Shown here in pieces: positions 191 to 53,404 of a stretch of DNA of 64,000 bases. Positions within the stretch are counted from its first letter, which is position 1. Every line of letters starts with the position of its first letter. The notes under the pieces are model-generated. The model was given only the letters and a program-made list of their open reading frames with translations. It made no database searches and was not told the origin of the DNA. The position numbers were made by a program, and so were the translations under genes. This stretch comes from Geosiphon pyriformis uo1 (lineage: Eukaryota; Fungi; Glomeromycota). The stretch spans positions 949,152 to 1,013,151 of the forward strand of contig JAAOMT010000697.1 in NCBI GenBank assembly GCA_016748015.1, in the 5' to 3' direction.

Positions 191-982
191 TGTTACTCAT
201 AGAATATAAAAAATATAATATTATTAGTCAGTAGATATTAGCCAATCAGAGGTAGATGTAGTAAATGTGGAATTCCAGAATTCCTCTCATTAGGAATTCC
301 AAGATTCCTGTTGCAAAAAATTGAGGAATTGAGGAATCTCAATTATGTATATATAGCAGTAGGATTAGAAGTTGAAAAGACAGACCTCTCAGTTTAGATT
401 TAATCTAAGCAATATTCCAGTTCCCAATAATCAAATAAATAATTATTTCATATCTCAACCTACTCTCTACTATCAACGCTTTATGTTAATAGTAATTAAT
501 ACTTAACCATGCTGGAACAATAGCCCTTGATCATGGCTATTGACAAGATACTAACAAATTGTCTTGGCTTATTTTCTCTATTTTTCTTTATTTTATTTTC
601 TTTATTTTATTTTCTTTCTTTTTGTGATTTTGTTGTTGTATACTAATTGGTTAAAAAAGATCAAGCACTGAGTTATTGACATCAAGGATAGTCTGGTAAA
701 AGACCCAGAAATAAGGATAGGATTTTATATATTATTGAATAGCTTACCAGAAGGGCCTAACTGCCAGACTAAATCCAGCCACCACACTGAGAAAGAAATT
801 GGAAAAACTCTTGGAAAGATATATTTACTATTGACACTATTGAATCTCTGTTCATTATACAAAGAACTCCATCAAAACTTTTAGATACAACACTTACAAA
901 ACATCATCAACGGAAGTAGCTTTTGAGCACCAAGTTATGGGTTTGTTATTTAATTCAACAGTAGAAATAATTATCTGTAACA
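191..982 (+). repeat. 5' LTR of element A
   Basis: Starts TGTTACTCAT, ends TGTAACA. Direct repeat of 9361-10240. TATA-like TATATATAGCAGT near 348-360. Confidence 0.95.
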
Positions 983-984
983 TT

Positions 985-1001
985 TGGTGCTCTCTGTAAG
1001 G
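985..1001 (+). promoter_or_regulatory. Primer binding site of A (tRNA-Ile(UAU)-like)
   Basis: TGGTGCTCTCTGTAAGG 2 nt after the LTR. The consensus across elements, TGGTGCTCCCTGTGAGG, resembles the complement of eukaryotic tRNA-Ile(UAU) 3' ends. The tRNA identity is inferred. Confidence 0.8.
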
Positions 1002-1044
1002 TATAATCTTACAGAAAACCAGCACTGACAACACCAAACCAAAA

Positions 1045-4000
1045 ATGACAGAATCAGAAATAATAGGGACAAACCATTTAGGATTCACAAAATTCTTATT
1101 CCAATAGTACAATCAGCAGCTAGGTCTAAACAACAACTATTACCCAGCAGAATCAGCTTTCAACTTCTATGTCAACAAAAAAATCACAGATTTTCTAGGA
1201 AGACCAGTTAACATTGAATCAACAAGAGAAAATTTCTATTCAGAACTAATCCAACACACCAACTTACCCAGAAATTACAGCTTCACACCTATCATTAGAG
1301 AAATCAACCAAGAAATTGAAAGATATACACAAAAGACATTCTCTATTACTTACCAGGACAAAGCAAAGAAAAACTACAGACATCAGCAGTAACATCCAAA
1401 GGAATACAAATTCCTAACTGGAAGAAACAAAGAATTGAATCTCTGATATACTCATCATACCATCACACACCTGGAAGTACCATCAACATCACATCAGTAG
1501 ATGCGTCTACCAGTACAAAGACACTGCTAGCAAGAATTGCATTTCAGAGTAAACAAAAAAAAATGAACTATTAGGAGCATATGGTGATTATTTTGAAAGA
1601 TTTAAATCGAGATCACCAACACCATCTGGATTTTGATCACCGTTTTATCAGCCAGATTTCGGAACTGTCAGTTCCTGGGAAATTACTGAATCAAAAAAAG
1701 AAGAAGACGAGGATTAGGAATTTAATTACCAAAATCTGATTCTAAAAAACCCGAACATTCAAATTCAGCAACATTTAGAAAATTCGGAAATCAAAACTCC
1801 AAATATTCGAACTCTGCCAAATCAAAGAAATCAAAACCCTGAGTTAATTCATCAGCAAAATCTACCTCTAGTTATTGTCATTGATCAACCACCAGTTGAG
1901 CCAATTGGTGAGCCAATTCAACCACCTCAAGTACTACTCCAACAATCGTTACCTCTTCAACAACCACTCCAACAGCCACCACAACCACCTAACTTAGATC
2001 CAATGGCCTACACACCAATCACAAAACTTGACAACTTTACCGGCGAAGAGGATGATGCTCAAGTATGGCTAAATAATGTAGAAAAGGCCATCACAGCCAA
2101 TGGATGAAATGATGCCTGGGCAATGCAAGCCATTTTCTACTTTCTCAAGGATACTGCCAATTCATAGTATCAGAGCCTGATTAATAAACCACAAGATTTC
2201 AATGCCTTCAAAGTGGAATTCCTAAAATACTTCAGCAACAATAACAGCATCAATTGCCTAATCAACACATTTACCACCATGAAACAAGGAGAATCTGAAG
2301 CAGTTACCACTTATCTGGGATGCTTCCATTGAAATTTGTGCCAAATTTAAGCAATTGATGCCAACTATTTCACAGCTTTACAGATACTCAACCAGTTTAT
2401 CTGTGGCCTGCACAGCAGCATTTTGCAACATATATGTCCATTGCATCCAGGCACTCTTCAAGATGCAGTCACATATGCCAAAGATTTTGAATCCACTAAG
2501 TCAGAGGCTAACCACACCCAAGTCATTAATCTAGTAATGAACAGATCACCTGAATTGGATTCCAAATTGGAGAAGTTTAGTGAATCAATTAATAAGAGAT
2601 TGGAAGGATACTTAGCTGAAAATTATGTCATTTATTAGCCTCCACAATGACACAATAATCAAGGAAACTCTAATTGTGCCCAAAATCAGCCATGTTTATC
2701 TTTATCGACCAATCAACAGTGGCAACAGGAAATGCATATCTGCCACTATTGTGGTAAACAAGGACATATTCAAATTGACTGTTGTTAGCATTTAAATAAC
2801 CAATGATTGGGAAACCAATATCAAAACCCCAATTGCTGGTTCCAAACTCCGAATCAGTATCCAAATTAAAACCCACCCACTTACCTACCAGTGACACAGT
2901 CATCAGTCTATCAATCTCTGATGTATCAAGCTCCAATCTATCAACTGCAGCCACAAATAATTTATTAACAACCACAGCCACAAATAATTTATCAACTTCA
3001 ACAAATCCAAACACCACTCTAAAGCTTACCACCCAATGGAATCCAAAGACCAAGAATGACTCAACAAAGCTGGAAATCAGTAATGGTAGTCCATCAACCA
3101 ATCTCCAGTTCTTCACAGCAACCATCTGGATTATGCCAGAGGAATTTGGGTGCCGGTCAACCCCAGAACCCGAATTCCCATAACTATTTAAGTTTCCTGG
3201 TTATCTCAGAAGACGCCTTAACCAATAATCCAGCATTCACCCAAAAACAACCACTCATCAGTAATATCCCACCCACTACCATTACCAAAGACAAGTTTTT
3301 GGCTGCTATATTCCCATTTGAATTTGAGGAAACAACTGCAATGCCATTATTTAGTGGAGCCGCTCTTAAAGCCAAACCAATCACTACGATGTATATTGAT
3401 GCCAAAGTTGAGGGACAATCCATCAAATTGATCTTTGACAGTAGTTTAGCAGACAGCATCATCACACAACAACTCATGGATCAATTAGGTTGCTGAGTTG
3501 ATCGAGCTGCCAGTGCCAGAATTATCACAGCCAATGGAGTGACCAAAACTCCAATCAGTGAAATTGACGACTTCCCTTTTGAAGTCAATGGCATTATGAC
3601 TCCCATTAAAGTTCTAGTGATAGAAGTCACTCAATACCAAGCTCTTGTTGGTAATAACTGGCTATTCAAAGTCAATACGACGTTAGACTAGAACACCCAG
3701 GAATTCCAGCTAACATATCAGGGCTGACACATACGTGTACCAGCCACATGTGGCCATTTCAAGACTCCTTCAAAAAAGAAACTATTGATTAAACTGGAGG
3801 AAAAGAAAAAGAAATCTATTTGGAAAGCTTACCAAGTCTCTTGGGCCAATGCCGACCACAATGAACTACCACCAATACTCTCGTGGAATGATAACCTTAA
3901 GGGAAAGCAAAAAGAGGAGCTGACCTGGGAAACAGACAATTTGATCTGGACTGATAATGAACAGGAAGAACCATCGAGTTGAGAGTGGAAAGAAGAAAAG

Positions 4001-7000
4001 GGAAAAAGAAAAGAGAGGAAGAAAGAAAACACTCAAGCCAACAACACTAATATCCCATACACCTATGGTCAACAACAATTAGCGATCTATCACCAACCCA
4101 AACTGATATGCATTGATTGTGACAAGAAATTGTTGTCAATGGGCACATGCTGTGGTGATGATGAAAAATATTAGATGGCAACCAAGTTTTATTACTGCGC
4201 ATGCCATGTCGAATGTTTTAGAAGACCAAAACAAGTGGAAAAATGGGATAATACACCATGTATAGCCTGTGAAGAAACTCTCCTTGACAAAAGAATGTGG
4301 AACAACATTCCAGGGAGAAAAGAAACGTGCGACGTGTTCTGTCAATACACGATTCTCATCAGTGACTGGGTTGAGAAAGAAACACCTATAGAAGCCACCT
4401 GGAGAAGAGCTGTACAGTAATTGGACAGTTGTCCACATAATAACAATAAATTATGGCAAATAGCAATTGCCAAAATTGAAGGCGCATTGTCAGAAGAAAT
4501 CAGGACAATTAAAAACAACCCACCAAAACCCATTAAGCTTGACTGGAATGCAGAGCCAGTCATAAATTTTCTGGAACCAAAAGAGTTCTATGAACACTAC
4601 CAAAACTTGACATCCACTAGAGAAAAACAAAAACAACAGCTAGCACAGTTAAATACAAGACTGTGTTGCCATTGTTTAATTCTCAGTGACTTTGAATATT
4701 GTGACAATTGTGACCTTATTTACAATCTATCACTATGCATGATTTACATGATTCCTAAAGAAGAAGAACCAATCAGCAGCTGTGCATTGGAATCAGAATT
4801 GCTGACCAATCGCGATCCAGACTCTGACAATGATGACAAAAACACCAGTTTTAGCTACGTTCAAAATGACAATGACAACAATAGCGATTCAAACTCAGAT
4901 TCAAACTCTGATTTAAACTATGAACAATACATTGCACTACCAGATCTCTCCAAAGAACAAGAGTTGAAATGGTATAGTGACAATGGAGAAGGTATTATGC
5001 CAGAACGCATGCACGATACTGATGCAGGATTTAATCTGAGATATCCAGAAACAGAAACCATCAAATTGGAACCACATATGCACACCTACATTGATTTGAA
5101 AATAGCACTGAAAATTCCAGCAACAACAATGGTTCAATTAGCATTTAGGAGTAGTCTAGCAAAAAGAGGAATTAATATAAGAGGAGGAATAATTGATGCA
5201 GAATATGTAGGAAATATCATTGCTATGCTACAAAATGACTCAGAAAAGATGCTATATAATAGAGCCCAACAAAAAGATAGCACAGACAATATTCCTGCCT
5301 CTGGTTAGAGTAGCTTAGTTAGGGTCAGTAGAAAAGAGGGAGGAATTAGGAATAACAGCAAGAGGAATACAGAGATTTGGATCAATGAATAGAATAAATG
5401 TATCAGTTAATATGGCAGAGGAAGAAATTGTTGGCCAAGGAGAAATTATCTCAACTGGTCAAGCTATTTCTATTTCATCATATAACCAGTACATACTAGC
5501 AATAAAAAGGAAGGAAAAAGACCAAGCACAAATTTTTGAAGCAGAAGCCAGTCTTTGTGAATCAGGAGAAATTGGACTTATCAATCTCCACATACCAGCC
5601 AAAGATTATAGCTGCATAAAAATTCCCATCTACAACAACACTGACAATGTCATCAACATACCAAAAAAAACCATCATCAGATATTTAATCACAGAAATAG
5701 AAGACCAACCACCAAACCCCATTCCAGACTTTCCACAACTTTGTGGATATGTTGACATCACATCACAAACAATTTATGAACGAGACAAATGTTATTTACT
5801 CCAACCAGAACAATTGGAACAAATGAACATAGGAAACTTAGATCCACTCTAATGTATGCAACTCAAGATATTGCTCAACAATTTCAAAGACATCTTTGCC
5901 AATGAAAATAAGTTTGGCCAAACTGATATCATTCAGCATCAGATCAAGACTGGAGATGCAATGCCAATTAAACAAAGAGCATACAGAGTGCCACCAGCCA
6001 GCCATGAGATTATTCATTAAGAGATAAACCAAATGCTTGACAATGAGCTAATTCAGCCATTAATGAGCCCATAGTCATCACCAGTGGTACTCGTCTGTAA
6101 GAAAAATGGAAAGATCCAATTTTGTGTAGACTACAGGAAACTCAATGGTGTAACTCATGGAGACAGCTATCCAACTTCACGGATACAGGAATTATTTGAT
6201 GCTTTTAGTGGGAACAAGTGGTTCTCAACATTAGACTTGGACAGTGGTTATTGGCAAGTGGTTATGGATCCAGCCGACAAAGAGAAGACAGCATTCACCA
6301 CAAGAGAAGAGAATTTCGAATTTGAAGTAATGCCATTCGGTTTAACCAATGCACCAGCCACTTTTCAATGGCTAATGGAAATTGTCTATACTGGCTTATT
6401 GTAGAAATTAGTAGTTGTATACTTAGACAACACCAATGTATTCTCAAAAACATTGGATGATTATTTTCATCATTTTCAACAAGTGTTCAAAAGACTAAGA
6501 AGAACAGGACTAAAGTTAAATACAACAAAGTGCTTCTTTGGCAAGACAGAACTAAAATTCTTGGAACACATAGTCAGCAAAGATGGCATCAAAACAGATC
6601 CAGAGAAAATAGAGATAGTAAAGAACTTTTCAGTGCTGACCAATATGACAAAACTGAAATCATTCTTAGGATTTGCCAGCTACTATCAACGTTTTATCAA
6701 GAACTTTTCCAAGATAGTGCAGCCACTCAACTAACTGCAAACCAAGAATACCAAATATAAATGGGCAGAAAGTCAACAAAAAGCTTTTGACATTTTGAAA
6801 AGAAAGCTCATTCAAGCTCCAGTACTGATTTATCCAAATTACAGCAAACCATTCATCATCACCACTGATACATCTGGCCAAGCATTGGAAGCAGTATTAT
6901 CTCTGAAAGGACTAGATGGCAGAGAACATCTAGTAGCATATGCCAGCAGAGGTTTAACACCAGCTGAAAAGAACTATAAAACACCGAAACAAAAACACTT

Positions 7001-7219
7001 AACAATATACTAGTCAGTCATGAAATAGAAAGAATACTTGAGCCAGAAGTTTGATACACAGATCACAAGGGATTAACATCACTCTAAAAACAAGAATTTG
7101 AAGATGGAAGACAGTCAAGATGGAAAATGGCACTTGCATCATACAATTATACTATAGATTACAAAAAGGGAAAAAATAACAGAAATGCTGATAGTTTGTT
7201 GCAAATAAAACAAATCTAA
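1045..7219 (+). pseudogene. Gag-PR-Cys-rich-dUTPase-RT-RNaseH polyprotein of A (many premature stops, few frameshifts)
   Basis: Capsid-like region, CCHC knuckle CHYCGKQGHIQIDC, protease LIFDS(S), dUTPase DAGFNL/RSSLA/GGIIDA, RT FCVDYRKLN...MPFGLTNAPATFQ...YLDN, RNase H TDTSG..YASRGL. Ends NADSLLQIKQI-TAA (7217-7219). Confidence 0.92.
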
Positions 7220-7281
7220 GAACATTTTAACACAAAAATATAATAAAACCAGAACAATACCAACGAAAAATATAACAAAAT

Positions 7282-8664
7282 ATGAACATACAAAAATATT
7301 AACAATTTCAATATTATATAAACACTCAACAGTTCAAGGAGAATCTATCTCAAATGGAACAAAAGAGTATCAAACAACAATTAAAGTATTTTATCATTCA
7401 CCAAAATATACTTTATTGGAAAAATAGAAAAGATCCAGATCAACCAACCAGAGTAATTACAGAGCCAGAAAAAGAGACAATATTATTTAACATGTACTTA
7501 AATCCAACAGCAGGACACTTTCACAAAGAAGCAATCATAGAAAAAACCAAAAAAAGATACTATTGGCCATCAATGTATCTAGACATCATCCAATATGTTC
7601 AAAATTGTGATGCTTGTCAGTGAAAAGAAGATACAAAATCCAGTAAACCATTAAGACCAATCAAAGTGGAACAATCATTCGACCATGTTAGAATTGATTT
7701 AGTCAGACTATTAACAATCACCAGTGGAGGAAACAGATACATAGCAGTAGCCATGGACTATCTCACTAAATGGCCAGAGGTGAAAGCAATTCAAAGAGCG
7801 GATGCAGAATCTGTTGTCAAATTTGTTCATCAGGATTTGATCTGTCAACATGGATGTCTAAAAAAATTATTATCAGACTAAGGAACTCATTTTGTGAACA
7901 AAACATTAACAGAATTGAGCCAAAGATTCGGAATTAAGAGACCATTATCATCACCATACCATCCACAAACCAATGGATTAGTCAAAAGATTCAATAGAAC
8001 ATTGTGTGAAGCAATAGCTAAATTCAGCCAAAAAAACCAGAACGATTGGGATTTGTTGATACTATCAGTACTATTTGCTTATCAAACAATGAAGTAAGAT
8101 ACTACACAAGCAACACCATTTGAATTAATATATGGTAGAACAGCAACACTACCAATGGAAATAGAAGTCAGCACATACCCAACTGAACCAATAACAGAAA
8201 AGAATTTCAAAAATACATTGTTGAGAAAAACATATGACTTAATAGAAACATTAGAAAACAAACAATGAAGAGCAGTTGATAACATACAAAAGTCACAAGA
8301 GAAACAAAAAGAAAAACACAATAACCAACTATCAGATAAACCAGTCAAATTCAGGATTGAAAACAAAATACTCTTACATCATACCAAAGTGGAAAAACAA
8401 TGGAGTGGAAAATTTGACCCCAAATGTGATGAACTATTTCACATAGAAGAAATTCTAGGAAATGGAGCTTACAAATTAAGATTGAATAACAAAATCTTGA
8501 CTAAAGCAGCACATAGAGATCGACTGAAACCATACTACCATATAGCATCATTATCCACTAGTAATATTCCACAATTAAGAGTACAGAGAATACTAGTCCA
8601 ACCAAATGAGATTCCACAAGATCTGAAACCAATCATTATTATTGACAACAACACGTCCAGTTGA
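7282..8664 (+). pseudogene. Integrase ORF of A (own ATG)
   Basis: ATG at 7282 (MNIQKY). HHCC-like AGHF...CDACQ, rve core IDLV/DYLTKWPE/YHPQTNGLV, GPY/F-like C-terminus. Confidence 0.9.
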
Positions 8665-8687
8665 TTGACAAAAGAATATATAAGAAC

Positions 8688-9347
8688 ATGGTTGACGCAA
8701 CAGAAGAGATCAGAAAAATAGAGATTATGGACAATATCCATTTACTAGTCCAACAAATTTTTCAATTAATCTAATACCAGGAGATAGAAATTACCATCAA
8801 GCAACAAACCATTCGTTACAAAAATATGGCAAAAATACCACCAAACAAAGCAAAAAAAAGACTTGAAAACATGGTCGACAAGATTATGACCAAGATAAAA
8901 TTGGTCATGAAAGAACAACAAATAGTCAGATTACACCAAGAACTTACCAGAGAAACTTGGACTTGGTGGATACAACAATTTCCAAAAAACTATTGTTATT
9001 TTTACTTGGGACAACATGTAAATATCCAGAACTTGTACACTGACAAAACAAAACAGTTATTCGACACCACCATACTGGAACAACTAGAACAATTTGTGGG
9101 AAAGAATAATCTAACCACACAAGCTCGAGCCATTTACTGGCTATATATGGGATTTCAAGACTGACCAGAAATTTTACTTAACACAGCAATGGATACAGTT
9201 ATGAGTAATCAATTAAGAAAAATAACCAATGCCCAATTTGAAGAACTACAAAATAAAATAACACAAGTAATACTCAAAAAAGAAATTCAAGAAATAATTC
9301 AAGAAGAGGAATTAAAAGAATTAGATTTCGACGGAGCTCAATATTAA
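8688..9347 (+). pseudogene. ORF3 of A (~219 codons, unknown function, not Env-like)
   Basis: ATG at 8688 is in frame with the 8826 ORF. Two internal stops. Ends DFDGAQY-TAA at the PPT. Homologous ORFs in E, F and G. Confidence 0.8.
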
Positions 9348-9360
9348 AAGGAGGGGATAA
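9346..9360 (+). promoter_or_regulatory. Polypurine tract of A
   Basis: AAAAGGAGGGGATAA immediately before the 3' LTR. Confidence 0.88.
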
Positions 9361-10240
9361 TGTTACTCATAGAATATAGGAAATATAGTATTATTAGTCA
9401 GTAGATATTAGCCAATCAGAGGTAGACATAGTAAATGTGGAATTCCAGAATTCCTCTCAGAGGAATTGCAGGATTCCAGGAATTTCAAAATTCCCTGGCG
9501 AGAAATTGCAGGATTCCTCTCATTAGAAATTGTAGGATTCCAGAAATCCCAGAATTCCTGTCGCAAAGAATTGAGGAATTGAGAAATTAAAGAATCTCAA
9601 TTATGTATATATAGCAGTAGAATTAGAAGCTGAAAAGACAGATCTCTCAGTTTAGATTTAATCTAAGCAATATTCCAGTCCCCAATCATCAAATAAATAA
9701 TTATTTCATATCTCAACCTACTCTCTACTATCAATGCTTTATGTTGATAGTAATTAATACTTAACCATGCTGGAACAATAGCCCTTGATCATGGCTATTG
9801 ACAAGATACTAACAAATTGCCTTGGCTTATTTTCTCTATTTTTCTTTATTTTATTTTCTTTATTTTATTTTCTTTCTTTCTGTAATTTTGTTGTTGTATA
9901 CTAATTGGTTAAAAAAGATCAAGTGCTGAGTTATTGACATCAAGGATAGCCTGATAAAAGACCCAGAAATAAGGGTAGAATTTTATATATTATTGAATAG
10001 CTTACCAGAAAGGCACAACTGCCAGACTAAATCTGGTCACCATGTTGAGAAAAAAATTGGAAAAACTCTTGGAAAGATACATTTACTATTGACACTATTA
10101 AATCTCTGTCCATTATACAAAGAACTCCAACAAAACCTTCAGATACAACATTTACAGAACATCATCAATGGAAGTAGCTTTTGAGCACCAAGTTATGGGT
10201 TTGTTATTTAATTTAACAGCAGAAATAATCACCTGTAACA
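9361..10240 (+). repeat. 3' LTR of element A
   Basis: Direct repeat of 191-982 with extra GGAATTCC/GGATTCC-type repeat units. Ends TGTAACA. Confidence 0.95.
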
Positions 10241-13200: not shown

Positions 13201-16200
13201 GCATTAACTGGTAAGTGATAATGTTTCTGGTGGATCTATTGTTTAGGATCAAACGAATTGTTTTTATTTTGACTTCTGCTTCAGTGTATATAGCAGTGAT
13301 TGCTTTTTGTTTGTTGGTGGCTGCATTGCTAAGCAGGAATGGTGACTCATTTGCTTTGAACTCAAAAGGGAATATATCTGAAAGGTTGGCATTTTCAGCA
13401 ATTCTGGCTGGTGGGATTGTGGTAGGAGTATAAAAAGAGTTTTGTTGTTGTGCTGCAGCTCTATTTTATGAGAGTGCAGTATGGTAAAAATCCTGTTCTT
13501 CAGGTATTGTAAGATAGCTAGGTTGAGTATAATAATGGGTGGGTCTTGGCTGAGCTGGATTTCAGAGAACTAATTGGTTATTTGGGTTGATTTTGTTGTT
13601 GTTTGTTGCGAATTGGTTTTGTGGTGCAAATTGGTTTTGTTAAACCAATCTTTGAGCAGGTACTTGGTAATGTTGAATGGGTTGTCGATACTGTTGTTGC
13701 ATTGGCTGTGGAGCAGATTGATAGTAGTTGGTTTAATATTGTGGTCTTAATAGATAGTAAGCTGGTAGTAGTGGTGATTGGTAATAAGATTGTTGTGGCG
13801 AAGAGTAACATTGATTACTCCTATTTTGTTGGTCTCTTTGTAACTTCCTGCAATCTTTTTTCCAGTGACCAAGAATTCTACAGTAATGGCAATTTTGAGT
13901 CTGGTTATTAGAAAATGATGTGAAGTTGTTTTGATTCCGTCTTTGGAGTGGTTAATATCTTTGGGGTTGCTGTTGTTGTTGGTTGGTGAAATAGTTTTTG
14001 ACTTTTTTTGTGAGTTGGTCAATTTTCTCTTCAGCTGCTGAGCTGGTCTCTCCAATGGCTAAGTTCACAAGTTTTGTATAATTGGCTTCTTCCATGGCCA
14101 TTTCATATCTCTTTACATGCTGAATGGCAGAGTTTAAATCTTCTGGGACATGTGGGCAAATCTTTTTAATCAGTTTATCTTTTAAACCAGCGATAAATTG
14201 ATCCAAGATTTGAGCATCGAAATAATAATTATTAGTTTCAAGTTGGCAAATTTGTCTGAGAAGTTTGTTGAATTTTCCAATATAAGTCATGACAAATTTA
14301 GAGGGTTTTTGTTTGATATTGTGAAAATGATTTCGAAATGTGATTGAGATATTGTTATCGGTGAATTGTTCTAAGAAAACAGTTTTGAAAGCTGTCCAGT
14401 CATTAAAAGGGGTGGTCAAGTTTTCGAACCATTCGCCTGCTGTTTCTTTGAAAAAGTAGGAAATTGTTCTTAACATTCTGGCAGCATTCCATCTATTTGC
14501 ATCTCCAGCTTTAGTAATTTGGTTGAGCCATTCTTGGGGATTGGTTTCAATGTCTTCTCCATTAAATTCAGGGATTTTTGCGATGTATGCTGTCATTTTG
14601 TTTTCTTTGTTTTCACTGTTTATTGATTCTTTTTCAGATATTTCAGAGTCGTTTTCTTCATTCACTGCTGTCTCAGAGTGTTCACTTCGATTTTTAGCTA
14701 GAAAGTCAAGAAGATTGGAACTAGTTTAAAGGGGTTCTTGTTGTCTGGTGGGACTTCTGGGTGATGTAAAATTTTCTAATCTTGCAAATCAATTTAAGAG
14801 TGAGTTAGGTGTTTGTGCTTATGCAAGTGAAATTGGAAAAGGTGTGATAGTAAGTAGAAGTTTTGAACTGGTTCCTTGTTCAGGTGTTTGTAAGTGTTTG
14901 GCAGTTGTTTTTGGTAGTATTGGAGTATTTGGAGTGGTTTTTGAGTATTGCTTCAATTTTTGTTTGCCTTTGTTGCTTGTTTCTGTCTCTGATTTAAAAT
15001 CAATAGAATATTGAGACTGCATTGGATATGTTTCTTCACAGTACTTGATAATGTTAAAATTAAGTTTTTGAAAGTAAGTGGCAAGTGTTTCATTGTTAAG
15101 GTCTTCAGTTCCCAACTGTGAATAGTGTACTAAATTATTGTAAAGATTGCTTCTAACTTCTGAAATATTGTAATTTCCAAAAAGATAATTGTTGATGCAG
15201 TGTTACTAATAGAATTTTAGCTATTAATTAGCATGAAATTATTCTTATAATTCTTATAATTCATTAATATATTAATATCATTTCAAATTATCATTTAGTA
15301 TTTAATCAATTATTACATATCACAATTCAATTAAAATAATCCAATTAGTATAACAGAAAGTAGGATGATCAAATTACACAATACTCTGAACTTTGTAACA
15401 TTCAAAAATTCGCCGAAATTTACAGAAATTTGCCGAAATTATGAATAGTTCACCCAAATTAATCAATAGTTTAGCAAAATAACTTGTAGTTTATCAAAAT
15501 GTATCTTTAGTTTGCCAAAATTTGAGCAAAGAGAAAAAGTGCAAGTTCATAGACTAGTATTACAACAAGTTGTATAAAAGAAGAGCTTTTCTTTTTTGGA
15601 AAATGTATCTTACTTTAGATTTATCACTTAGAACCATTCTTATACACACAAAAAGAAATAAATATCAAATAAATTTGAAAAACCAAATTTTTTAATTATT
15701 GCACTTGGAAAATCCCCAAAACCCAACTAAACATTTTGAAATTGATTAGCTACCAATTTCAGTAAACTGTTAGTAACTCCAGGCCTGAATAGAAAACGTT
15801 TCTCTTGATAAAATTCTATTTCTTTTATATTTCTTTTATTTTTCTTTCTTTTCTTATTACAATCATTAGGGTAGCCTACAGATGAGATTCCTGTAGAAGA
15901 GTTGACTTTTATAGCAAAGTAACTACACATTTTAGTGAGCTTCCAGATGAGCAATTACTGGGAAAGAGTTAATGTTTACTACAACATAACTACATAAAGT
16001 AACTGGCAAGAAATTGGCCATTCCACTTATAAGCCCAGCAGTTCAAATTATAGGAGATAATTTGAAGATAAAATTTAGTTATTGGAGGTTCAACCACATC
16101 CAGAAAACGTGAATTTACAACAAACAGGCATCAACAACATTTAAGAAAAGAGACCAAAAACCTCCAATAACAGCAGTTTTTAATGTATTGGTATACTGAT

Positions 16201-16349: not shown

Positions 16350-16741
16350 TATTACCGGAGGTTTTTGGTCTCTTCTTAGCTCTTGTATGTTTGTTGTAAT
16401 ACTGTTAATTCACAACTATGGAAAGTGTTTGAACCTCCGATAACTAAATTTTTTCTTCAAATTATCTCTTATAATTTGAACAGCTGGGCTTATAAGTAAA
16501 ATGACCAATTCCGTGCCAGTTACTTGTGTAGTTACATTGTAGTAAATGTTAACTCTTTTCTAGGAATTACTTGTCTAGAAGCTCACTAAAAAAATATGTA
16601 GTTACTTTGCTGTAAAAGTCAATTTTTTTTCAGGAATCTTGTCTGTAGGCTACCCTAATGATTGTAATAAAAAAAGAAAAAAATAAAAGAAATGTAAAAG
16701 AAATAGAATTCTGTCAAGGGAAACGTTTTCTATCCAGGCCT

Positions 16742-16792
<51 letters not shown>

Positions 16793-17281
16793 GTTTTTCG
16801 AATTATTTGATATTTATTTTTTTTTGTGTGTGTGTAAATGGTTCTAAGTGATAAATCTAAAGTAAGATATATTTTCTCAAAGAGAGAAGCTCTTTTTTTA
16901 TACAACTTGTTGTAACACTATTCCATAAACTTGAACTTTGCTTTTTTCTACAATTTTACTAAACTAAAAATACATTTCGGCAAACTACAAGTTATTTCTG
17001 TGAACTATTAGATATTTTGGTAAACTATCAATTATTTCAGCGAATTTCTACAAATTTTGGCAAACTTTTGAATGTTATATATTTCGGGGTATTGCATGAT
17101 TAATCATTGCAATTAGGTTACTTTTGTGTTATATACAAATTGGGTTATTAATTAAATGATAACTTTGGACATTTTGCTAATGTAATAAGTGATAATTTGA
17201 ATGATAATATATGCTAATTAATGATAGGAATTATAAAGATAATTTCATGTTAAATAATATCTCTAATTTCGTTTGGTAACA
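16350..17281 (-). repeat. 5' LTR of element B
   Basis: Minus strand begins TGTTACC and ends GGTAATA (decayed GGTAACA), followed by TT-TGGTGCTCTCC PBS. Contains a 46-nt T run at 16746-16791. Confidence 0.92.
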
Positions 17282-17397
17282 CTGGTTACATGTGGAAAAT
17301 GCATAATTCATGCCTAGTTTAGATCATTTCTTTGATATATAGTACTAAGTAGTGTTTGAATTTTACTTGTTAAGCTAATAATAATAATAATAATAAT
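17282..17397 (+). mobile_element. 3' end of a LINE with (TAA)n tail; target site of element B
   Basis: Aligns by eye to the 3' UTRs of the two other LINEs (ctgg..a.atgt..aa.tgcat.a...tagttt...gtacta..tag...tttac..gttaa...taataa) and ends in (TAA)7. Confidence 0.7.
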
Positions 17398-18120
17398 ATT
17401 TTTAATTTTTAATTTTTTAATTTTTATTATTATATTTGGTTTAAATTAATTGTAATTGTCTAAAAAATAACTTTAGTACAAAAATTAAAATACATTTTTT
17501 AAAATTTAAAAAATATTATTAATATATATATATATAATTTTTAAATTAAAATATATATAAAAAAATTTAAATATAATTATTATTTAAAAAGTAAAAATAT
17601 TATTTTTACAATTATAATAAATAATAATAAAACTTTTTTAAACTAATTAAAAACTGTTTTATTTTATTAAAAAAAATATTTTTATTATATTTTATTTAAT
17701 TATTTTTAATTATTATAGAAAAAATAATAATTTTTTATTTTTGCTTTTATTATAATATAAAAATAAAATAAAAATTTTGTAATTTAACAAAAAAAATTTT
17801 TTTTAATTTTAATTAATATAATATATTGAATTTAATAATTAATTAATTTAATATATATTATTTATAATAAAAAAATTATTTATTATATGTTATAAAACAT
17901 ATTAATATAAAAATATTACTTTTTAAATTTTAAAGACAAAAACTTATTAAAAAATACTTTATTATTTATATTATTAAATTTATAATATTTTATAAATATT
18001 TTTAATTAACTTTAAACATTAAAAAAATAATTATTGTTTAAAAAATAATTTACAAATTAACTTTAAGAAAACATTTAAAACCAATATATATAATAATATA
18101 AATATAATTAAAACTACTAA
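17398..18120. other. Extremely AT-rich low-complexity intergenic tract
   Basis: Almost only A/T, no ORFs. Confidence 0.9.
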
Positions 18121-18255
18121 TAAAAGTTTCTTCAACTTCAAACCAATGCTTGGTATTGTCTATTATTGATGGTAAAAATAATATTGAAGTTTTTGTCTTT
18201 CTCAATTTGGACTCGGCAAGAAAATTTCTACCAAATTTAGGTGGAATTATCCCAA

Positions 18256-18321: not shown

Positions 18322-21300
18322 ATGAAGTATCTGTGCGTTGCCGAGAAGCCCTCAGTAGCCAAGTCTGTTGCACATATTCTAGCCAATTGTCTTGCCCACA
18401 CTACCCCTCAAACGGTAAATTTGAGTGTTATAGGGGATCTAAAACCCATACCAATTTCGACTCACGAATAAGTCGCTTGTAATTTGAAGGGTTCTTCGGA
18501 AAATCAATATATAAAAAATTACACCTTTTCTTTTCAAGACAACAGTGGGAATCGTAATGAGGTCACTGTTACTGCCGTACTTGGACATTTGACCAGTATT
18601 GATTTTACCTCAGGTCATGGTTGGAGTGACTGTAATCCAATAGCTCTCTTTGATGCTCCAATAGAAACCAAAATCCTGGAGGTATTAGTGGAACTTTGAG
18701 CCTACACAATATTCTATTTATTCTATAAATAAAACAACTTTATTTTGAAAGGCAATGATAGGGGTAGCTCAAAATCTTAAGAACAAGGTATGGAGTGCGA
18801 ATTGCCTCATGATCTGGACAGACTGTGATCGTGAAGGAGAAAATATTGGAAAAGAGGTTGTGGAAGTATGTCGCCAACGAAACCCAAGGATCATTATAAA
18901 ACGGGCTCGTTTTTCGGCTATAGAGTCACGGTGAGTTTCAATAGGTCACTTGTTTGGTAGTAGGATTCTAGGCTGCCGCTAATATTTATTTAATCAAACC
19001 TCAGCGCTATTCTCAATGCTTGGTTGACTTCTGTTAACTCTTCACAAGAACAGTTAGACATGCATCAATCCGATGCAGTTGAGGCTCGAATGGAACTCGA
19101 TCTACGTGTAGGTGCTGCATTCACCCGATACCAAACTCTCGGCTTTCAAAAAGAGTTTCAAAGGCTCGATTCCGAAGGTGTAATAAGCTTTGGTAAGAAG
19201 CCAAGCATATCTCAAATTACTATGGAAACTAATTCATAATGTGCATACTTTATAAGGTCCTTGTCAGATCCCAACTCTTGGCTTTGTTGTTGATCGTTGG
19301 GAACAAAGAGAAAATTTCACCGTTGAAAAATATTGGTATATAGAAGTAATTATTAAACACCAAAATAAAGAGGTGAACTTTCGTTGGGTTAAAGAACAGT
19401 ATCAAAACGAAATTCAAATAAATGAAGCAAACAACAATCAAAAAACAAAAACAGAATACAATTGCTATGTTGAACTATTCGTTGATGCATACATAGTCAT
19501 GTTGTCTGGAAAGGACGCTATTATAGACATGGTGAAATCAGTTCCAAAATCAAAATGGTAGGAATTTTGATGGAATATCTTGTATTGACTTTAAGCTGAA
19601 GACTGAGAAGATCCATTCTTAAATTCAATAGATATCTTTTTATAAGGATCTTAGTACTCAGCTAATCTTTCGTATTGGTGATTAACCAGATAAGAAAATT
19701 TAAATTTTCATAGGAAACCGCGTCCTTTGACAACTGTAGAACTTTTGAAACTTGCGGCAAGATTTTTGCGACTTAATTCTCAATCAGCAATGATCGTAAG
19801 GAACATGTTTCTTTTATCCTTGTAATTCTTTCATTGTTTTTGCTCATCTCATTCTTTGAACGATAATCTAGTCAGCTGAACGATTATACAACCAGGGTTT
19901 CATTACCTATCCCAGAACTGATACTGATCAGTTCCCACCAAATACGGATTTTAAAGGGATTATCGGAGAACTCAAGGGTGGTGCTGAAGCTGAACTAAAC
20001 CGTGGACAAAATAATTCAACTGATCAAGGCGCTTTCGATTGGATACCGTTCGCTGAAAGGTAAAGGGCTCTCTACTTTTACGAGAACAATTAATATTTAT
20101 GATCTTAACTTAGTTTGTACTATTTCAGTTTGTTAAACGACAAGTTTCGAACCCCTCGAAACGGGCAGAAGAATGATGGAGCCCATCCCCCTATTCATCC
20201 GATAAGATATCCGTCATCCTATCTCCAGCATAGGGAAGACCAGGATCTTTATAATTTCATCCTAAAATATTTTTTGGCTTCATGTGCTGATGATGCCAAA
20301 GGACAAGAAACTATTGTTGAAATCAAGGTTGAGGAAGAAACATTTCGCGCCACAGGTATTTCATAATTATGAATTTATTATCTGCATAAAAATTCAAATT
20401 TAAGTAATTTTTTAGGTCTTGTAATTTTGGAGCGCAACTGGCTTGAAGTATATCCTTATGAGAAATGGGGCGAGCGTGATATACCTAATTTTCGAGACGG
20501 ACAGATTTACAAAGACCCAATTGTCTTGAAAAAAGAGGGGAGAACGACTGCCCCCGAATTACTTACTGAGGCCGATTTAATTACATGCCTATATGAAAAC
20601 GGAATCGGTAGGTTTAGCAATCCTTTCTGTTTGGTATAGTTTGTCATCATCATTGACAATATTTAATGAAAAAGGAACGGATGCTACGATTTCCGAACAT
20701 ATATCAAAAATATTTATTCGCAATTATGCGGATAAATTAAGAGAGGGTCAAAAAGAATATATTTATCCCTTAGAATTAGGTTTGGCTTTAATACATGGAT
20801 ACAGAGAAATCGGATATGAATCATCGTTATCCAAACCTTTCTTGAGGCGAAAAGTAACCATATTAATGATGCAAATTCAACAATTTGATTTTTCATTACT
20901 CAGCATACTATTAATTCATTGGTATCAATTTGTCGGCCAGTTAGAAGAAGAACTTCAACAAATCTGTGATAATCAAAAAACAAAAGGTGAAGTTGTCGCA
21001 ACGTTTGTTGACAAATATCGTAATATGTATTCGATGACGGTACAAGAAGAGGCAAAAATTATTCAGGTTTTTATCTCATCTAAAACGGCTCATCAAAAGC
21101 TTCAGATCAATACAAAATAGTGATACCATTAAAAACAAAATCTAGGCGTTTATGCGTCATTTCGGCCCTCCTGTTTGTAGCGATCCCGACGGATCATACA
21201 TAGTTGGATCAAGAAAAATTGAAAGGAGAAGAGTAAGGCAAAATTTCGTCTCTTAAAAAATACTTGTGTTCGATATTGTAATAATGAGTTACATTATCCA

Positions 21301-21959: not shown

Positions 21960-22995
21960 TATTTAATTGTAACTTTAAATCATATAATTACAAGTCATAT
22001 AATATTTATTCTAAATATAATCTAGCATTATACGCGAAAAATTGGTTCCATTTTTTAATTAAAAACTTATTATTCTTATTTTTGAAAACTAACTTTTAAA
22101 ATATTATAAACAATTATATTTTTATTAATTATTATTACTATTAAAAAGCTTACAAAAAAATCTTAACATTGTTATTTAAATTTCATGTCAATTAAACTCG
22201 TAAATATTCAATGTATTGTTAATGTGAAATATAATTTAAATTTAAATATTTTAATTAATTATTAATTATTATAAAGTATTCAACTTTATAACATGTAAAA
22301 TTACAATATTATAAATAATTTTTATAATATTAATTTATAATATTAATAAAAATTTATAATTTTGTTATTTAACAAAAATTCTATAAAAAATTAAAAAATT
22401 AATAATAATAAATTTTTTTAAAATTGTTTAAAATTGTTTAAAATATAGTTTAATTATAACTTGACTTTATATAATATTATTATTATATATTAAACTTAAA
22501 ATTATATATATATTATTTTTAATCAATTATTTAAACCAATTAAAACTACTTTAAATTACTACTGTAAATTTTTTATTAAACATTATTTTTAAAAATTATT
22601 TACTAAAAATCTTTAATAATAATTAAAAAACAAAATTCTAAATTAATAAAAATTATATTATAAATAATATAATAATATTAATATATAAAATAATTAATTT
22701 TTTTAATATTTTAACTAAGTATAATTTTACCAAAATCTATTTTATTTTTATTTTTAAATATTAGACTACAGATTTAACTTATATTTTTTATAATATATAG
22801 CTAATTATTTAATAAATACTTATCTATTTTTTAAATTAAAACACTTAATATTTTAATTTTATCAAAATATTTGGCAAAAAAATATTTGTTTTTAATAAGT
22901 TTTTGTAAATATTTTTTAATTGTATTTTTATTAAACTTATTTTATTTTTTAATATATTATATATGTTTTTATAATTAATATTAAGATTAAAGCAT
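21960..22995. other. Extremely AT-rich low-complexity intergenic tract
   Basis: Near-pure A/T between TOP3 and LINE-1st. Confidence 0.9.
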
Positions 22996-24992: not shown

Positions 24993-27900
24993 TGAGTGGT
25001 CTGGTTTGGAAATTTGCTATGTGTAATGTTTGTGGAATCAATGTTCCTGCCAAGCAAAAGGATATTGTGCATTGGCATCGAGATTCTGGCAATTTGGTCT
25101 CATTCATTACAGAAATGAAGTTGAGGTCTTCTACTAAACCATGGATTGCGAATAAGTTTGATAGAGTGTGATTTTTTCTTCAGGATTAGATAAAGGTTTC
25201 ATTGATGCTGGTGTTGCTATAATTATGGACAATTCTTTGGCTCATTATGTTTCTAAGGTGGAGGAGGTTCCTAGTAGAGTTGTTTCTGTTCAGCTTTTAT
25301 TCAGAGGCAAGTTCTTGGTTACTCTTTTGGGATTATATGCTGGTGCCTCTTTTGGGACTAGATTTGGTTAGGCTTCTGAGATTAACTCTCTTATTGCAAA
25401 AGCTGTCAACTCCAGCACTCATGTTGTCTTGGGTGGGGACTTTAATAAGAATGGATCTGGTAGAAGTGCAAGTTTCAAGTTCTGTTTGGGTTTGGATTTG
25501 GTCAATTTATTTGGCAGTCATTATTTAGCTGGTTTTCATACATAGAGCAATTCAAGAGGAGTTGTAAAAACAATTGATTACATTTTTGTAAGTGGCAGCT
25601 TGTCTTTTGCTGTTGCTGGTTATCAGACAATCTCTGTTTCAAATTTCTTTGACACTGATCACAGGGCAGTTATGGTGTTAATTAGTTTGGGTGAGCTTCT
25701 GGATGTTCAATTGAATAGCTTGTGTAAGCAGGCAAATAAGGATCATTGAAAATTCAAGTTCAAAAATACTGACAGTGTTAAATGGGCTAAGTTTAGGGAT
25801 CTATCCTCGGCAAAACTCTTGTCATTGGGTGATGTGTTCTCTGGTGCTGAAGTGTGTAGTGATGTGGATGCTATATGGGCAATATTGCAGAAGGCTGTGT
25901 TAGGATCTGCTGATGAGACATTTTCAAGACATTGGTTTAGCAAATTTAGGCATTCAAAAAACAGGCATTCTTCCAAGTTTTTTGGTTTGGAATTGTTGGT
26001 GGCTAAGATTGTCAAGAAATTTTGCTCTGGTGGCTTGTCTGATGTTGATCTTCTTGTGAGTAAGTGGTTAACTCTGAATAATGCCAAGGCTCGTGTTTTC
26101 AGGGACTTGATCAGCTTAGATGTCAAATCTGATGCTATTGTTAAGCATTTGTTGTTGGTCCACAAAGATTACAGGAAGGCAAAAATGTTTGAGTTGAGGT
26201 TCTCTGAGGAAACCTCTATTAGAAAGGCAATTGATAAGCACATGGAAAATTTCTGTTCTGACAAAGATAGTATGATTAGAAGTGTGTTGGACAAACCTTT
26301 TCACAAGATAGTGTTGAATCACCTGGTGATTGATGATGAATTGGTTTTGGAGCCTGAAGAGGTGAAAGTGAGTGTGGACAAAATAATAAAAAGATGGACA
26401 AGAAAACAATCAATGCATATGATGATCTCTGATCTTTGGGCTCGGCAGTATGCGCCATTAAGCTATGTTTGAAACGATGTCTTTTCTGGTATTATGCGTA
26501 AAATTAGCATGGGTGAGTTGCTTTCTGTCATTAGTGATCTACCTGATGGCAAGGCTGCTGGTTTGTCCAGTATTCCAAATGAATTGTGGAAACAAGGTGG
26601 TTTTGGGGTGCATATTAGCGCTATTTAATGTGTGTTTGACTGCTGGTGTGGTGTCTGTTTTGTGGAAGAAGATGTGGGTTTCAATGATCCCTAAGCCTTA
26701 CAACTGGGATGGGGTTCTTACAAACACTTGGCCCATTGCTTTGATTGAAACTGCCAGGAAAATTCTGTCTAAAGTTCTGTTTGATCATATTTCGGTGGCT
26801 TGCAGTAAGTTTAATGTTCTTCAAAATGACAATTTTTTGGTGTTGAAAGGTATGTCTACACAATCTCTGGTGTTTGCTGTTGGCTTGGTGGTTAAAGATG
26901 CTCTTGAAAAAAATTAAGAGGTTTGGTTGGTTTTGCAAGATATGCAGAAGACTTACAATTTAGTTGGGTGACACTATTTGAGGACTAGCTTACAGTCTAT
27001 CAAGATGTGTAAAAAGTTCATAAAGTTTTTTGGCAGTATTTATGAGAATAGGGTTAACAGAGTAATAACTAACTTTGGTTTATCTGGTGGTTACAAGGTG
27101 CATGATAAACTAGATCAAGATGAGATTTTTTCATTCCTTCTGTGGAGGATTTTTTATGATCCACTTTTGTGTAAGGTTAAAAGACACGAACAAGTGTGTG
27201 AGTACTAAATTGATACTAAGTTTGTTTTGAAAACTGGCAGGATCGAGGGTGGTAGTGGTTTGACTTCATACTTTTCAGCTGGCGCATTTGTTGATGATAC
27301 AATCTGGGTTGGAAATTGTCAGGCTTCCACTTAATATGCATTGAATATTGCCAGTGAGTTTTTTATGATCAATGATATTTCTATCAACAGTAAGAAGACA
27401 GTGGCTATTCCCATAAATTAAGATGTTAAGATTGCTAAGCTGAGTATTTGTGGTCAGCCAATTTTAATTGCTAAGAAGGGTAAGGCTTATTACTATCTGG
27501 GTATTTTTTTGTCAACTGAAGGGCTGTCCAAGCCAAGTGTTGTCAGAGCTCATGCAAATGTGCACTTTTTTGTCAATATTGTACTTAAAAAAACGATTAC
27601 AGACAAACAGTATTCATATTTAGTGTCAACTGTCCTACAGCCTATTGTCAGCTATCATATTTAGTTCAGTTTTGTTTCTTCTAATGTTTGTTGCAAGTGG
27701 AATGTCTTAGTTAGGAAGAGTCTCAGGTCTAAAGCTTGTCTTCTTCATGATTTTCTTGATGCTGCTTTGCATCATCCATCATTGTATGGCCTGAAACCTT
27801 TTGAACAGGTGCAGTTCAAAAGAAAGATGGCTGCTTTAATAATGTTTTCCAATGCTTTTGGTGTTCTTGGGCATTTGTTTAGTCATAGATTTTTGGATTT

Positions 27901-29566
27901 GCAGGTTCTTGGTTAGGCTCCTTTAGATCCTCTGCAGTTTCCCATCAGGTTGCATGTCAGTCTGGTGAACAACTTTTTGGCTGGGTTGGTAAAAATCTTT
28001 TTGGACAATGGACTATCTCTAGTGAACAATCTCTCCACTGTATTTCATAATCCTGGTCACTTTCCTATGTCTGCTATTCTTGGGAAGTCTCTGTATTTTG
28101 ATTTGATCATCTCTCTTAGGTGCTTTGGTGTTGTTTTTGGTGATCAACTTTTTGATAAAAAAGGTGGTTTGATGGATTGGAAGACATTTCGCCATTGAAA
28201 AAGGTTAGATCTGTGTGGTCCTGTGCCTTGTTGGTTTGCAGTTTCTTCTGAGTTTTTGAGGAGTAAGGGTTTCTCATCTTTTGGTTCTGCTGACTCTGTT
28301 GAGCTGCTTGGGTTGGACATTTTGGGGTTTGGAGAGTTCTCTGCTGTGAGGGATGGATTGCATAACATGTGGTCCAGTTTTTTTAAGGTTTTTATGGATA
28401 GATCTTTGAAGAATTTTGGTTCTACTGAGGTTGCCAGTGGTACTGCTGCTTATTTTCTAGCCTTGGATCTGAGTGTTGACATTGCTGTCTAGAGTCTCTT
28501 GTTGTCTACTATGGCCGAATTACAGACTGTTGCTTTGTCTTTGGAATGTGTTTCTTCTTTGTGCATTGTGGTGTTGCATCTTGACAGCCAGGCTGCTATT
28601 AATGCTTGTGTGTCTGAGATGTCTTTGGCTGCCCCCAATTTTCATAATCAATGCTGGATAGAAAGGCATTATATTTTCAATTTGGTTAGGGATAAAGATC
28701 TTAGTATGAGTTAGGTTAAGATGAAGGGTCATTCTGGGGTTCTTGGGAATGTGGAGACTGACTTGGCTACTGGGGCTGCCTTTGGGTCTCCTTTTTTCCT
28801 GTCGGCTAGAGTGTGTGAACACTTTCTGGTTGTTAAGGGTACTCCTGTCTCCGGTAATATTCGTTATTTTGTCAGGAATATTTTTTATTCTGTTTATCAT
28901 GCTCATTGGGAAGCTGGTCTTGGTTTCAATGTAGTTCTGGAGGTAATGATTGTTCACATAAACTGGGTTGTCACTGCGATAATGTGGCATCCTGATTCTC
29001 ATATGTTTACTGGTTTCACTAGTTGTAAGTTCTTAGTGCTTCGGACTTATCTTATGAAAGCTGTTTACAGGAGATTACCAGTGGCAGTTAGGAAGAGATT
29101 GTATGACAGGCATTACCCTGGTGTGTTGTGTTTGTTGTATGGTGGTGTGGAGTTCTCCGACCATTCTTTTACTTGCACTTATGAATCTGGTGTTTGTGAA
29201 GAGATCTTGGTTGAGACTTCTGCCCATTGGTCTGTTTTGGCTGGTGTTTCTAGGTCTTCTGCTTCCGCTGTGTTACAGGTTTTATTTCGATGTTCCATTA
29301 ACGTTGGGCTGTATGCTTTGATTTGCAAAGGATTTGTGTTGAATGAGTGGTATAAAGAGACATGTAGTGTTTTTGATGATAGGAAGGTAGCTGTTGCACA
29401 GATTACTGACTTTGTAAAATTTGTTGTGGAATTACATCATGCTAAAGTGTGGTTGGTGAGATCTATCCACCAGATAAAAATAGAGAAGGCTGGTTTGGTT
29501 CATGATGGCAGTGTCATTTCTGGACTTGCTCATGGGGTGTTTTTGGTTTTGGCTAGCCATATGTAG
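24992..29566 (+). pseudogene. LINE ORF2: APE endonuclease-RT-RNase H-Zn finger
   Basis: ATG overlaps the ORF1 stop (TAATG). APE motifs CNVCG, GVAII, LGGDFN, IDYIF, TDHRAV. RT motifs PIALIE, QDMQKTYN, AFVDDT. RNase H motifs FMDRS, AELQ, LDSQ, KGHSGVLGN. Zinc finger CLLYG...HSFTC. Confidence 0.92.
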
Positions 29567-29663
29567 GAAGTGCGTAAGTCACATTTAGTTTGAGCCTCTT
29601 AGTTTGGCTTTATGTATTAGATAGTGATTGGACTTTACTCGTTAAATGCGTAATAAAAAAAAA

Positions 29664-30392
29664 TATTAAATATTTTTAATATTTAATGTTATAATTATTT
29701 ATTTTTTAAGTATTATGTTTATTTTTAAAATAAGTAAAATTTTTAAGCATAATAATAATTAAATTATTAATATACTTAATTTAAGTTTTTAAAAATAAAG
29801 CAACTTTTAATATTTATAATAAAATTAACTTAAATAATTAAAAAAAAATTAAATTTACTATAAAACTAATTTTTACAATTATAAATTCAATAACAACAAA
29901 TAAATTTTGAACTTGAATTTTAAAAAAAACTAATTTAGACTTATAAGTTTTATTAATAAAACATTTAAAAAACCAAAATAAATATAAGATATAAATTTAA
30001 TAAATTAATTAGCTAAAATTTTAAATATAATAATAAACTTAAAAAAAACAATAAAAACAGTTTTATAAACAAATTTATTAACTTAAAACACCAAATTAAT
30101 AATTTTTAAAGCTGTATAATTGAAAAAAATTAATTAATTTGAATTTAAATATATTATAAATAACTATAATTTTTATTATTATTAAAACAAATTAGTAAAT
30201 AAATATAGTATTAGTAACTTTAAAAAACTTAAAATACATAATAATATATTGTTACAATTATTAAATTTCAGTTTAATATTTAAAAAAAATATTTAAAAAA
30301 ACATTATACAAATATATAATAACAAAAACAAATATTTTACAATCTTAAAAATAATAATAATAAAAATTAAAACCTTAATTAATAAAGCTATA
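29664..30392. other. Extremely AT-rich tract between two tail-to-tail LINEs
   Basis: Near-pure A/T, bounded by the two LINE poly(A) tails. Confidence 0.9.
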
Positions 30393-35240: not shown

Positions 35241-35253
35241 TTATCTCCTCTTT

Positions 35254-35912: not shown

Positions 35913-35943
35913 GTACTGTGTCTTTATATACTCTTTTGGTTGT

Positions 35944-37326: not shown

Positions 37327-37387
37327 CTTTTGTTATATTTTTGTTGGGTTTGTTCTGGTTTTGTTATATTTTTATGTTGAGATGTTT

Positions 37388-40262: not shown

Positions 40263-40271
40263 TCATCCTCT

Positions 40272-40925: not shown

Positions 40926-40929
40926 TTAT

Positions 40930-42243: not shown

Positions 42244-42308
42244 TATCGTGTTTATTTGTGGGAGAGTTACAAATAATTAAGTTGGTTTGGTTTGAGAGAG
42301 TTTTACTA

Positions 42309-46536: not shown

Positions 46537-46588
46537 ATAATGAGGGAATAAGTAAATTTTGACAACCTCACAGGGAGCACCACTTTTA

Positions 46589-51346: not shown

Positions 51347-51405
51347 TGTTAATTTATTGTTGATCCTGGTTTTTTGTAGAATTATATCTCATAGGGAGCA
51401 CCAAA

Positions 51406-53393: not shown

Positions 53394-53404
53394 TAATTTT
53401 CTCC

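Follow-up and report, generated by a model that had tools for sequence, protein, structure and literature searches.

The 64-kb window (the whole stretch of DNA analysed here) consists of nested, decayed LTR retrotransposons, with element A inserted in B, F in E, and H in G. A Pfam scan of the window identified gag, protease (PR), dUTPase, reverse transcriptase (RT), RNase H (RH) and integrase (IN) domains, all in Gypsy order. The dUTPase was found in A, B, E and H, directly 5' of RT in A/E/H and in B; none was found by Pfam in F. Element A occupies positions 191-10240 on the plus strand. Its 5' LTR (191-982) has TG...CA ends, is followed by the primer-binding site at 985, and is 94% identical to the 3' LTR (9361-10240) over 793 aligned bases. 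Between them lies a decayed pol (4421-7216), recognized by Pfam matches to dUTPase, RVT_1 and RT_RNaseH and by translation of its tail, which ends with a TAA stop (7217-7219) 4 codons past the RNase H end. A spacer of 62 nt (7220-7281) comes next; it is rich in A and C, contains neither AUG nor GT, and is predicted to be unstructured. It is followed by a decayed stand-alone integrase ORF (7282-8664) that has its own ATG, an Integrase_H2C2 match and a tblastn match from residue 1 of protein P0001. The ATG of a third ORF, also decayed (8688-9347), is located 23 nt past the IN stop, and this ORF ends at the polypurine tract (9346-9357) just 5' of the 3' LTR.

The same arrangement recurs in four other elements. 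Element E (minus strand, 34424-52262, LTRs at 52262-51406 and 35240-34424) is split by the inserted F. Its Pol stop TAA (37390-37388) and 61-nt spacer together cover 37327-37390 and precede a decayed stand-alone integrase ORF (35944-37326) with Pfam matches to H2C2, rve and SH3_Tf2-1. Element F (minus strand, 39619-47292, LTRs at 47292-46589 and 40262-39619) is the least decayed copy. Here a TGA stop (42311-42309) and a 65-nt spacer starting TAG TAA (together 42244-42311) are followed by a stand-alone integrase ORF with 2 internal stops (40930-42243, 3' end approximate) and, 3' of it, by an open stretch representing the third ORF (40394-40825). In G, on the minus strand, the TAA stop (55664-55662) and a 54-nt spacer with zero G (together 55608-55664) lead into a decayed stand-alone integrase ORF, the aligned part of which spans 54549-55607; its third ORF is an open stretch (53377-53805) that reaches the 3' LTR (53393-52421). 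Element H starts at 56760 on the plus strand (LTR at 56760-57588), and its TAA stop, 59-nt spacer and IN ATG (63974) lie at 63912-63976, with IN cut off by the window end.

The LTR pairs of A, E and F are 89-94% alike, and all three elements have a primer-binding site and a polypurine tract. A primer-binding site starting TGGTGCTC is common to A, E, F and H (985, 46582, 51403, 57591). The differences within LTR pairs are nearly all transitions (transitions to transversions 43:3 in A, 46:0 in F and 76:10 in E, the E pair compared over 51406-52190 and 34424-35208). They hit every C context, CA most often, and CpG is at 0.23 of expectation. This bias may reflect methylation-linked or RIP-like mutation, in which case an age read from LTR identity would come out too high. 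Target duplications of 4 bp are present, blurred by transitions. Three related LTRs of the B/G family occur at 15198-16165, 16352-17284 and 52421-53393, two of them adjoining in opposite orientation. The window also contains pieces of a gene for a type IA DNA topoisomerase, spread over several frames (19256-21117, plus strand) and either decayed or intron-split, and an inverted pair of another repeat (26138-29249 and 30956-34073, 66% alike) within which a weak RNase H match was found at 31555-32079. AT-rich palindromic repeats lie between the inverted copies near 29550-30507, and similar repeats at 17342-18121 and 22285-22991.

The initial annotation had proposed that in these elements Pol stops 3-5 codons past the terminal RNase H motif and that integrase restarts at an ATG beyond a short spacer. 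The stop, ATG and spacer values that it gave for A, E, F, G and H are exact. The Pol tail indeed measures 4 codons in all five copies, but the xDxLSR motif by which the RNase H end had been recognized is degraded in four of the five, and in H an additional stop lies within it. The assignment to three families also holds: the RNase H tails of A, E and H are about 80% alike while those of F and G are 55-58% alike to the others, so that the five junctions count as three independent observations. The triple stop TGA-TAG-TAA reported for F is present, although its second and third stops are partly copy-specific. Among the variants listed for contigs of run X1, which is possibly the window's own source and thus not independent, these two stops vary in about 31% and about 45% of the depth, and the variant listed at the first stop is still a stop codon. 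For junction A, compared in 2,348 run X1 contigs, the listed variants of at least 15% include none at either the stop or the ATG. The window IN ATGs align with residue 1 of intact stand-alone integrases in tblastn, and A occupies position -3 in all five copies. Together the five spacers contain 10 G in 301 nt, compared to 14% G in the IN coding sequence, and zero AUG; they fold at 0 to -3.6 kcal/mol and are predicted to be unstructured. The window copies are dead, with 47 stops in 3,885 aligned codons (12 per 1,000), and the window junctions alone are therefore suggestive rather than decisive.

Relatives were examined at both protein and DNA level. A protein search with the F integrase returned 841 proteins of 215-685 aa. 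Among the best 120 of these, 87 start at the same M-D/E/N, 55-80 residues ahead of the zinc finger, 23 begin at a more internal position, 7 are extended and 3 are fragments; none has an RNase H motif upstream of IN. Three N-terminally longer cluster members (P0328-P0330) were considered as RNase H fusions and rejected, being gene-caller extensions. Two Rhizopus proteins (P0127, P0262) have the conserved Met as first residue and a long extension at the C-terminus, with no RNase H upstream. Because such proteins are gene calls restricted by length, the junction DNA was checked in 80 metagenome loci fetched by similarity to the IN core (the best 80 of 528). Of these, 35 span the junction from the RNase H end into IN; the two are split in 34 loci and fused in one (L067). 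The split loci form 30 clusters at 80% identity, with a median IN identity of 49%. Outside the junction, the aligned parts of 22 of the 34 are free of stops and frame changes, and as background the relatives show 15 lesions besides the junction across 23,500 aligned codons (0.64 per 1,000). An example is L006, which has a gag-pol frame of 1,621 aa, an IN frame of 426 codons and a third frame of 162 codons. Named relatives are from Geosiphon pyriformis (66% identity, part of IN), Rhizophagus, Cetraspora, Entrophospora and Rhizopus; most of the fetched loci carry no host name. Since these names, Rhizopus apart, belong to the Glomeromycota, the window elements likely come from a fungus of that group. 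A search of IMG/VR gave no IN relative. The intact loci bear out the view that the split is not random decay, and we consider it almost certainly a real, inherited trait of the lineage.

The junction sequences restrict how IN can be produced. Among the 34 split loci there are 7 overlaps of stop and start (-14 to -1), 20 spacers of 24-97 nt, 4 of 158-163 nt and 3 of 365-727 nt; L019 and L024 belong to the 24-97 nt group only after skipping a premature stop in the Pol tail. Spacers from -14 to +727 nt that fall in all three frames (classes of 10, 14 and 10 junctions) exclude readthrough and a fixed frameshift, as had been proposed from the window alone. The initial annotation had named splicing of RNase H to IN as one of the competing outcomes. 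Splice donors were sought in 24 junctions with a tail of at most 40 aa and a spacer of at most 200 nt. In 9 of the 24 the interval from the catalytic Asp codon to the stop is free of GT, and a donor-like site exists in only one of the 24; the window junctions have no donor-like site in this interval. The missing donors exclude a splice fusion that keeps RNase H whole. The start codons, by contrast with internal ATGs, are in favourable context: a purine is found at -3 in 49 of 55 IN starts versus 189 of 309 internal ATGs (Fisher p 2.5e-5) and G at +4 in 49 of 55 versus 90 of 309, p-values in this comparison being generous since the rows are related. All 55 have D, E or N as residue 2 of IN, and N-termini of the type Met-D/E/N are substrates of NatB acetylation. 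These sequence patterns indicate that the context of the IN start codon is under selection. The conserved AUG, its selected context and the lack of a rejoining route agree with the proposal that IN is an ORF of its own rather than a Pol domain, and IN is very probably made from its own AUG.

Fused forms were looked for among longer proteins (282 matches). Two NCBI gene models, P0121 and P0122, fuse RT-RH with IN, each at a different position; both lack the final RNase H motif as well as the N-terminus of IN, and both nest among split elements in the RT tree. Their joins are likely gene-finder introns. True fusions are P0124, which has RT-RH-IN and the third ORF in a single frame, P0126 and L067. 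In the IN tree split rows group with the true fusions (SH-aLRT 94), and P0124 stands beside overlap-type loci (91). The fused P0124 and L067 are located inside or beside the split group, which means that the split is not universal. In a careful RT tree, built from the fetched proteins and covering 52 of 117 RT rows, the backbone is open and 3 changes between split and fused are needed; 0% of 200 bootstrap trees had a single change. One split clade was not rejected under LG+G4, a simpler model, in a test on 38 rows (20 versus 18; p-AU 0.75). The split is old and clustered, and a single origin with later re-fusions is plausible.

One subclade carries a distinct sequence at the junction. A hairpin motif of about 40 nt occurs in 22 loci, as a single copy per locus, and lies 0-15 nt 5' of the IN AUG in 21 of them (32 nt in L037). 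The model was built from 20 of the 22 loci, the other two being near-copies; L012 is a weak extra. In the 20 sequences 7 of 9 pairs vary on both sides and 98.9% of cells are paired, the structure having been drawn from the same sequences that were used to score covariation. None of 500 shuffles reached the observed pairing, and slid controls gave 26-60%. Folded singly, the sequences are not exceptionally stable (z -1.7 to +0.2). The presence of G-U pairs indicates that the plus-strand RNA is the form that folds. In 16 hairpin loci scanned to E 5 no Rfam 15 match was found at the hairpin, and nothing in the window reached the Rfam gathering score. Neither the window nor most of the lineage has the hairpin, and its exact pattern did not occur in viral contigs or prokaryote genomes. 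Of 19 carriers in the IN tree 18 fall in one group (support 95). The exception is L042 (1-50), whose IN groups with L040, far from the other carriers; module exchange or a chimeric contig are possible explanations. At least one subclade therefore keeps a dedicated RNA element at the IN start, though its placement 0-15 nt 5' of the AUG could equally fit an internal entry site or a protein-binding site.

Six hairpin carriers (L006, L017, L019, L026, L037, L044) have an acidic Pol extension of 216-315 aa past RNase H, with a Cys/His motif common to L006, L019, L026 and L037 and no Pfam match. Even with tails of this length the Pol stop is still near the AUG (spacers of 62-93 nt). The long spacers of 365-727 nt in L014, L045 and L041 contain 7-12 upstream AUGs. 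Those of L014 and L045 include small ORFs of about 80 codons, possibly further cistrons that shorten the distance to the IN AUG. The 727-nt spacer of L041 (6706-7432) includes a 10-mer repeated three times and the two halves of the hairpin motif with their order exchanged; comparison with Rfam gave no useful match. Apart from A-rich words, no k-mer 5' of the AUG is common to the 32 non-hairpin junctions. The UGGGA tether of calicivirus-type TURBS was found within 100 nt of the stop in just 2 of 39 junctions; the fungal rRNA target of such a tether may differ. Five loci also have an in-frame TGA between protease and RT, in all five followed by CTA (L014:870, L038:3290, L039:902, L041:3358, L060:1585). 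This is a readthrough-type context and, judged from sequence, likely a second recoding point, between Gag-PR and RT-RH.

A third ORF follows IN. In intact loci the product of this ORF, here called ORF-X, is about 150 aa long, and in many of them the ORF ends at or near the polypurine tract; at 50% identity the family falls into 544 clusters. In some loci the ORF-X start codon overlaps the IN stop or lies right next to it (-8, -4, -1, +2), and in others the distance is tens to more than 1,000 nt, with two of them at more than 1 kb. In A, E, F and G an ORF occurs at the same place. Profile-profile comparison of the window third ORFs with the ORF-X family gave a modest match (E 2.3e-4, probability 44%), the sole link between them, and hmmsearch with two ORF-X profiles did not detect the window third ORFs at a useful E-value; the third ORF of A is likely a distant family member. 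The predicted ORF-X model is all-helical (pLDDT 95). No Pfam family was found in 12 stretches and the ESM Atlas gave no usable match. Against solved chains there was no Foldseek match at E 0.001, and the best VIA-align hit had Z 4.5 and rmsd 3.0 over 69 aligned residues; these results do not establish a new fold. The polycistronic layout suggested for the window is in this way supported and extended by a conserved ORF 3' of IN.

The elements are clearly of Gypsy type, with Pfam matches to RVT_1, RT_RNaseH, H2C2 and rve and the domain order PR-RT-RH-IN in the window and the loci. The best match of the IN profile to a solved structure is Ty3 Gag-Pol (E 9e-52). Yeast Ty3 and canonical Ty3/Gypsy elements (Metaviridae) have the same LTRs, primer-binding site, polypurine tract and order gag-PR-RT-RH-IN. 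In the accessible part of a survey of fungal LTR elements IN is a domain of the pol polyprotein (PMC3248453). Here, in contrast, IN has its own ORF and AUG with a further conserved ORF next to it, and the canonical frame with IN inside Pol is absent from all five window junctions and from 34 of the 35 loci. PosPlaTy3-5 of Postia placenta is a fungal Gypsy element with a dUTPase, like window elements A/E/H and B; the available text describes one fused ORF or gag plus pol and no separate IN (PMC2864245). In Tat elements an additional RNase H forms a separate ORF within a Gypsy element, and its function poses a similar question; in the sections available it is an accessory domain in rare structures (PMC10508981), whereas here an essential integrase is concerned across a whole lineage. 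Ginger/GIN DNA transposons have a stand-alone Gypsy-type integrase ORF without gag, RT or LTRs. Identity with these was rejected, since IN here lies in full LTR elements. No chromodomain was among the Pfam matches of the window IN stretches or of the best 120 stand-alone INs. The claim that the layout is undescribed stands for the literature searched, where no separate-IN Gypsy layout was found, and only for it; subscription papers, Repbase and GyDB were beyond its reach. Reports of a 'separate ORF' concerned other domains in the portions at hand, and the part available of a study on Rhizophagus transposable elements did not treat ORF layout (10.1101/2021.03.30.436303). New here are the covarying hairpin in one subclade and the conserved third ORF after IN.

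In view of the above, several routes to a separate integrase can be considered. We give an even chance to termination-reinitiation on the genomic RNA: ribosomes would terminate at the Pol stop and restart at the IN AUG past a short unstructured spacer, with restart at LINE-1 ORF2 across 63 nt as a model, and in its subclade the hairpin would tether or position the ribosome. What favours this reading is that the Pol stop has kept its place next to the AUG through the gain of long Pol tails, and that seven loci have overlapping stop and start while LINE-1 crosses its spacer likewise. An enzyme ORF behind a long ORF, with an overlap or a spacer of about 60 nt, is also found in SART1, caliciviruses, influenza B, where restart 63 nt downstream is described, and fungal viruses, according to the sections available of a paper which also states that reinitiation past long ORFs requires special elements (PMC5972666). 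Those systems are non-LTR elements or RNA viruses; here LTR elements are involved, and they lack the UGGGA tether. No special element is evident in the window families, simple scanning could not cross the AUG-rich spacers of L014, L045 and L041, and ORF-X as a third cistron would need a second restart, which at two loci has to bridge more than 1 kb. Short spacers could also just mirror genome compactness. IN, and ORF-X with it, could instead be made from subgenomic RNAs, through an internal promoter or a 5' leader spliced upstream of the IN AUG. The strong, scanning-type start context fits this possibility, which has precedents in env and foamy virus pol; long AUG-rich spacers would be accounted for and separate RNAs make a third cistron easier. 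We nevertheless hold it doubtful. It leaves unexplained why the Pol stop tracks the AUG after tail gains and why seven overlaps exist, and for the spliced version the spacers of G and L004 contain no AG, while the sole AG of F is within a stop codon, although an acceptor could still lie inside the RNase H coding sequence.

Internal ribosome entry at the IN AUG, by the hairpin in one subclade and by A/C-rich unstructured spacers elsewhere, window included, is distinctly unlikely. The covarying hairpin just 5' of the AUG in 21 of 22 loci and the G-poor window spacers would suit it, but the hairpin is not unusually stable and most of the lineage does without it, and internal entry does not need a nearby stop. 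An intron, readthrough or frameshift that rejoins RNase H and IN into an ordinary Pol polyprotein is very improbable: P0121 and P0122 would be examples, and the TGA-CTA loci show that recoding likely exists in the lineage, but the two joins lie at different positions and cut away the final RNase H motif and the start of IN, and neither the near absence of donors nor the spread over three frame classes fits rejoining. An origin of the stops in the decay of dead copies, or in assembly error, has hardly any probability left. The stop density of the window copies and their transition-dominated LTR differences would agree with it, yet it is ruled out by the 22 relatives that are intact save at the junction against so low a lesion background. 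Sublineages may differ in mechanism. With termination-reinitiation as the preferred route, free IN would bind the RNA from which it is translated and so enter the particle; alternatively it would meet the cDNA after reverse transcription, or ORF-X would carry it. Foamy virus Pol offers a parallel as an enzyme precursor made apart from Gag with another packaging route. It shows that packaging independent of Gag can work, though in the accessible text IN stays in Pol and is required for Pol encapsidation (PMC3407527), whereas here IN itself is the separate product. In its fullest form the proposal is rather unlikely: a large, old fungal LTR lineage with a three-cistron genomic RNA (gag-pol, IN and ORF-X) in which IN is translated without a polyprotein, driven either by a small RNA element of a new class or by an unstructured spacer, and the helical ORF-X protein loads free IN into the particle or onto cDNA.

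The layout has consequences for annotation, as intact copies in mycorrhizal fungi risk being scored as broken or joined by false introns, like P0121 and P0122, and their integrases being named free transposases. It also provides a compact system for eukaryotic polycistronic translation, a candidate RNA element outside Rfam and, in the 544 ORF-X clusters, a protein family that is still unstudied. Both the dose of integrase and its delivery to the particle are governed by the polyprotein in retroviruses and LTR retrotransposons. A separate integrase would have to enter the replication particle by an unusual path, and a widespread lineage without the polyprotein link shows that another route of integrase supply works.
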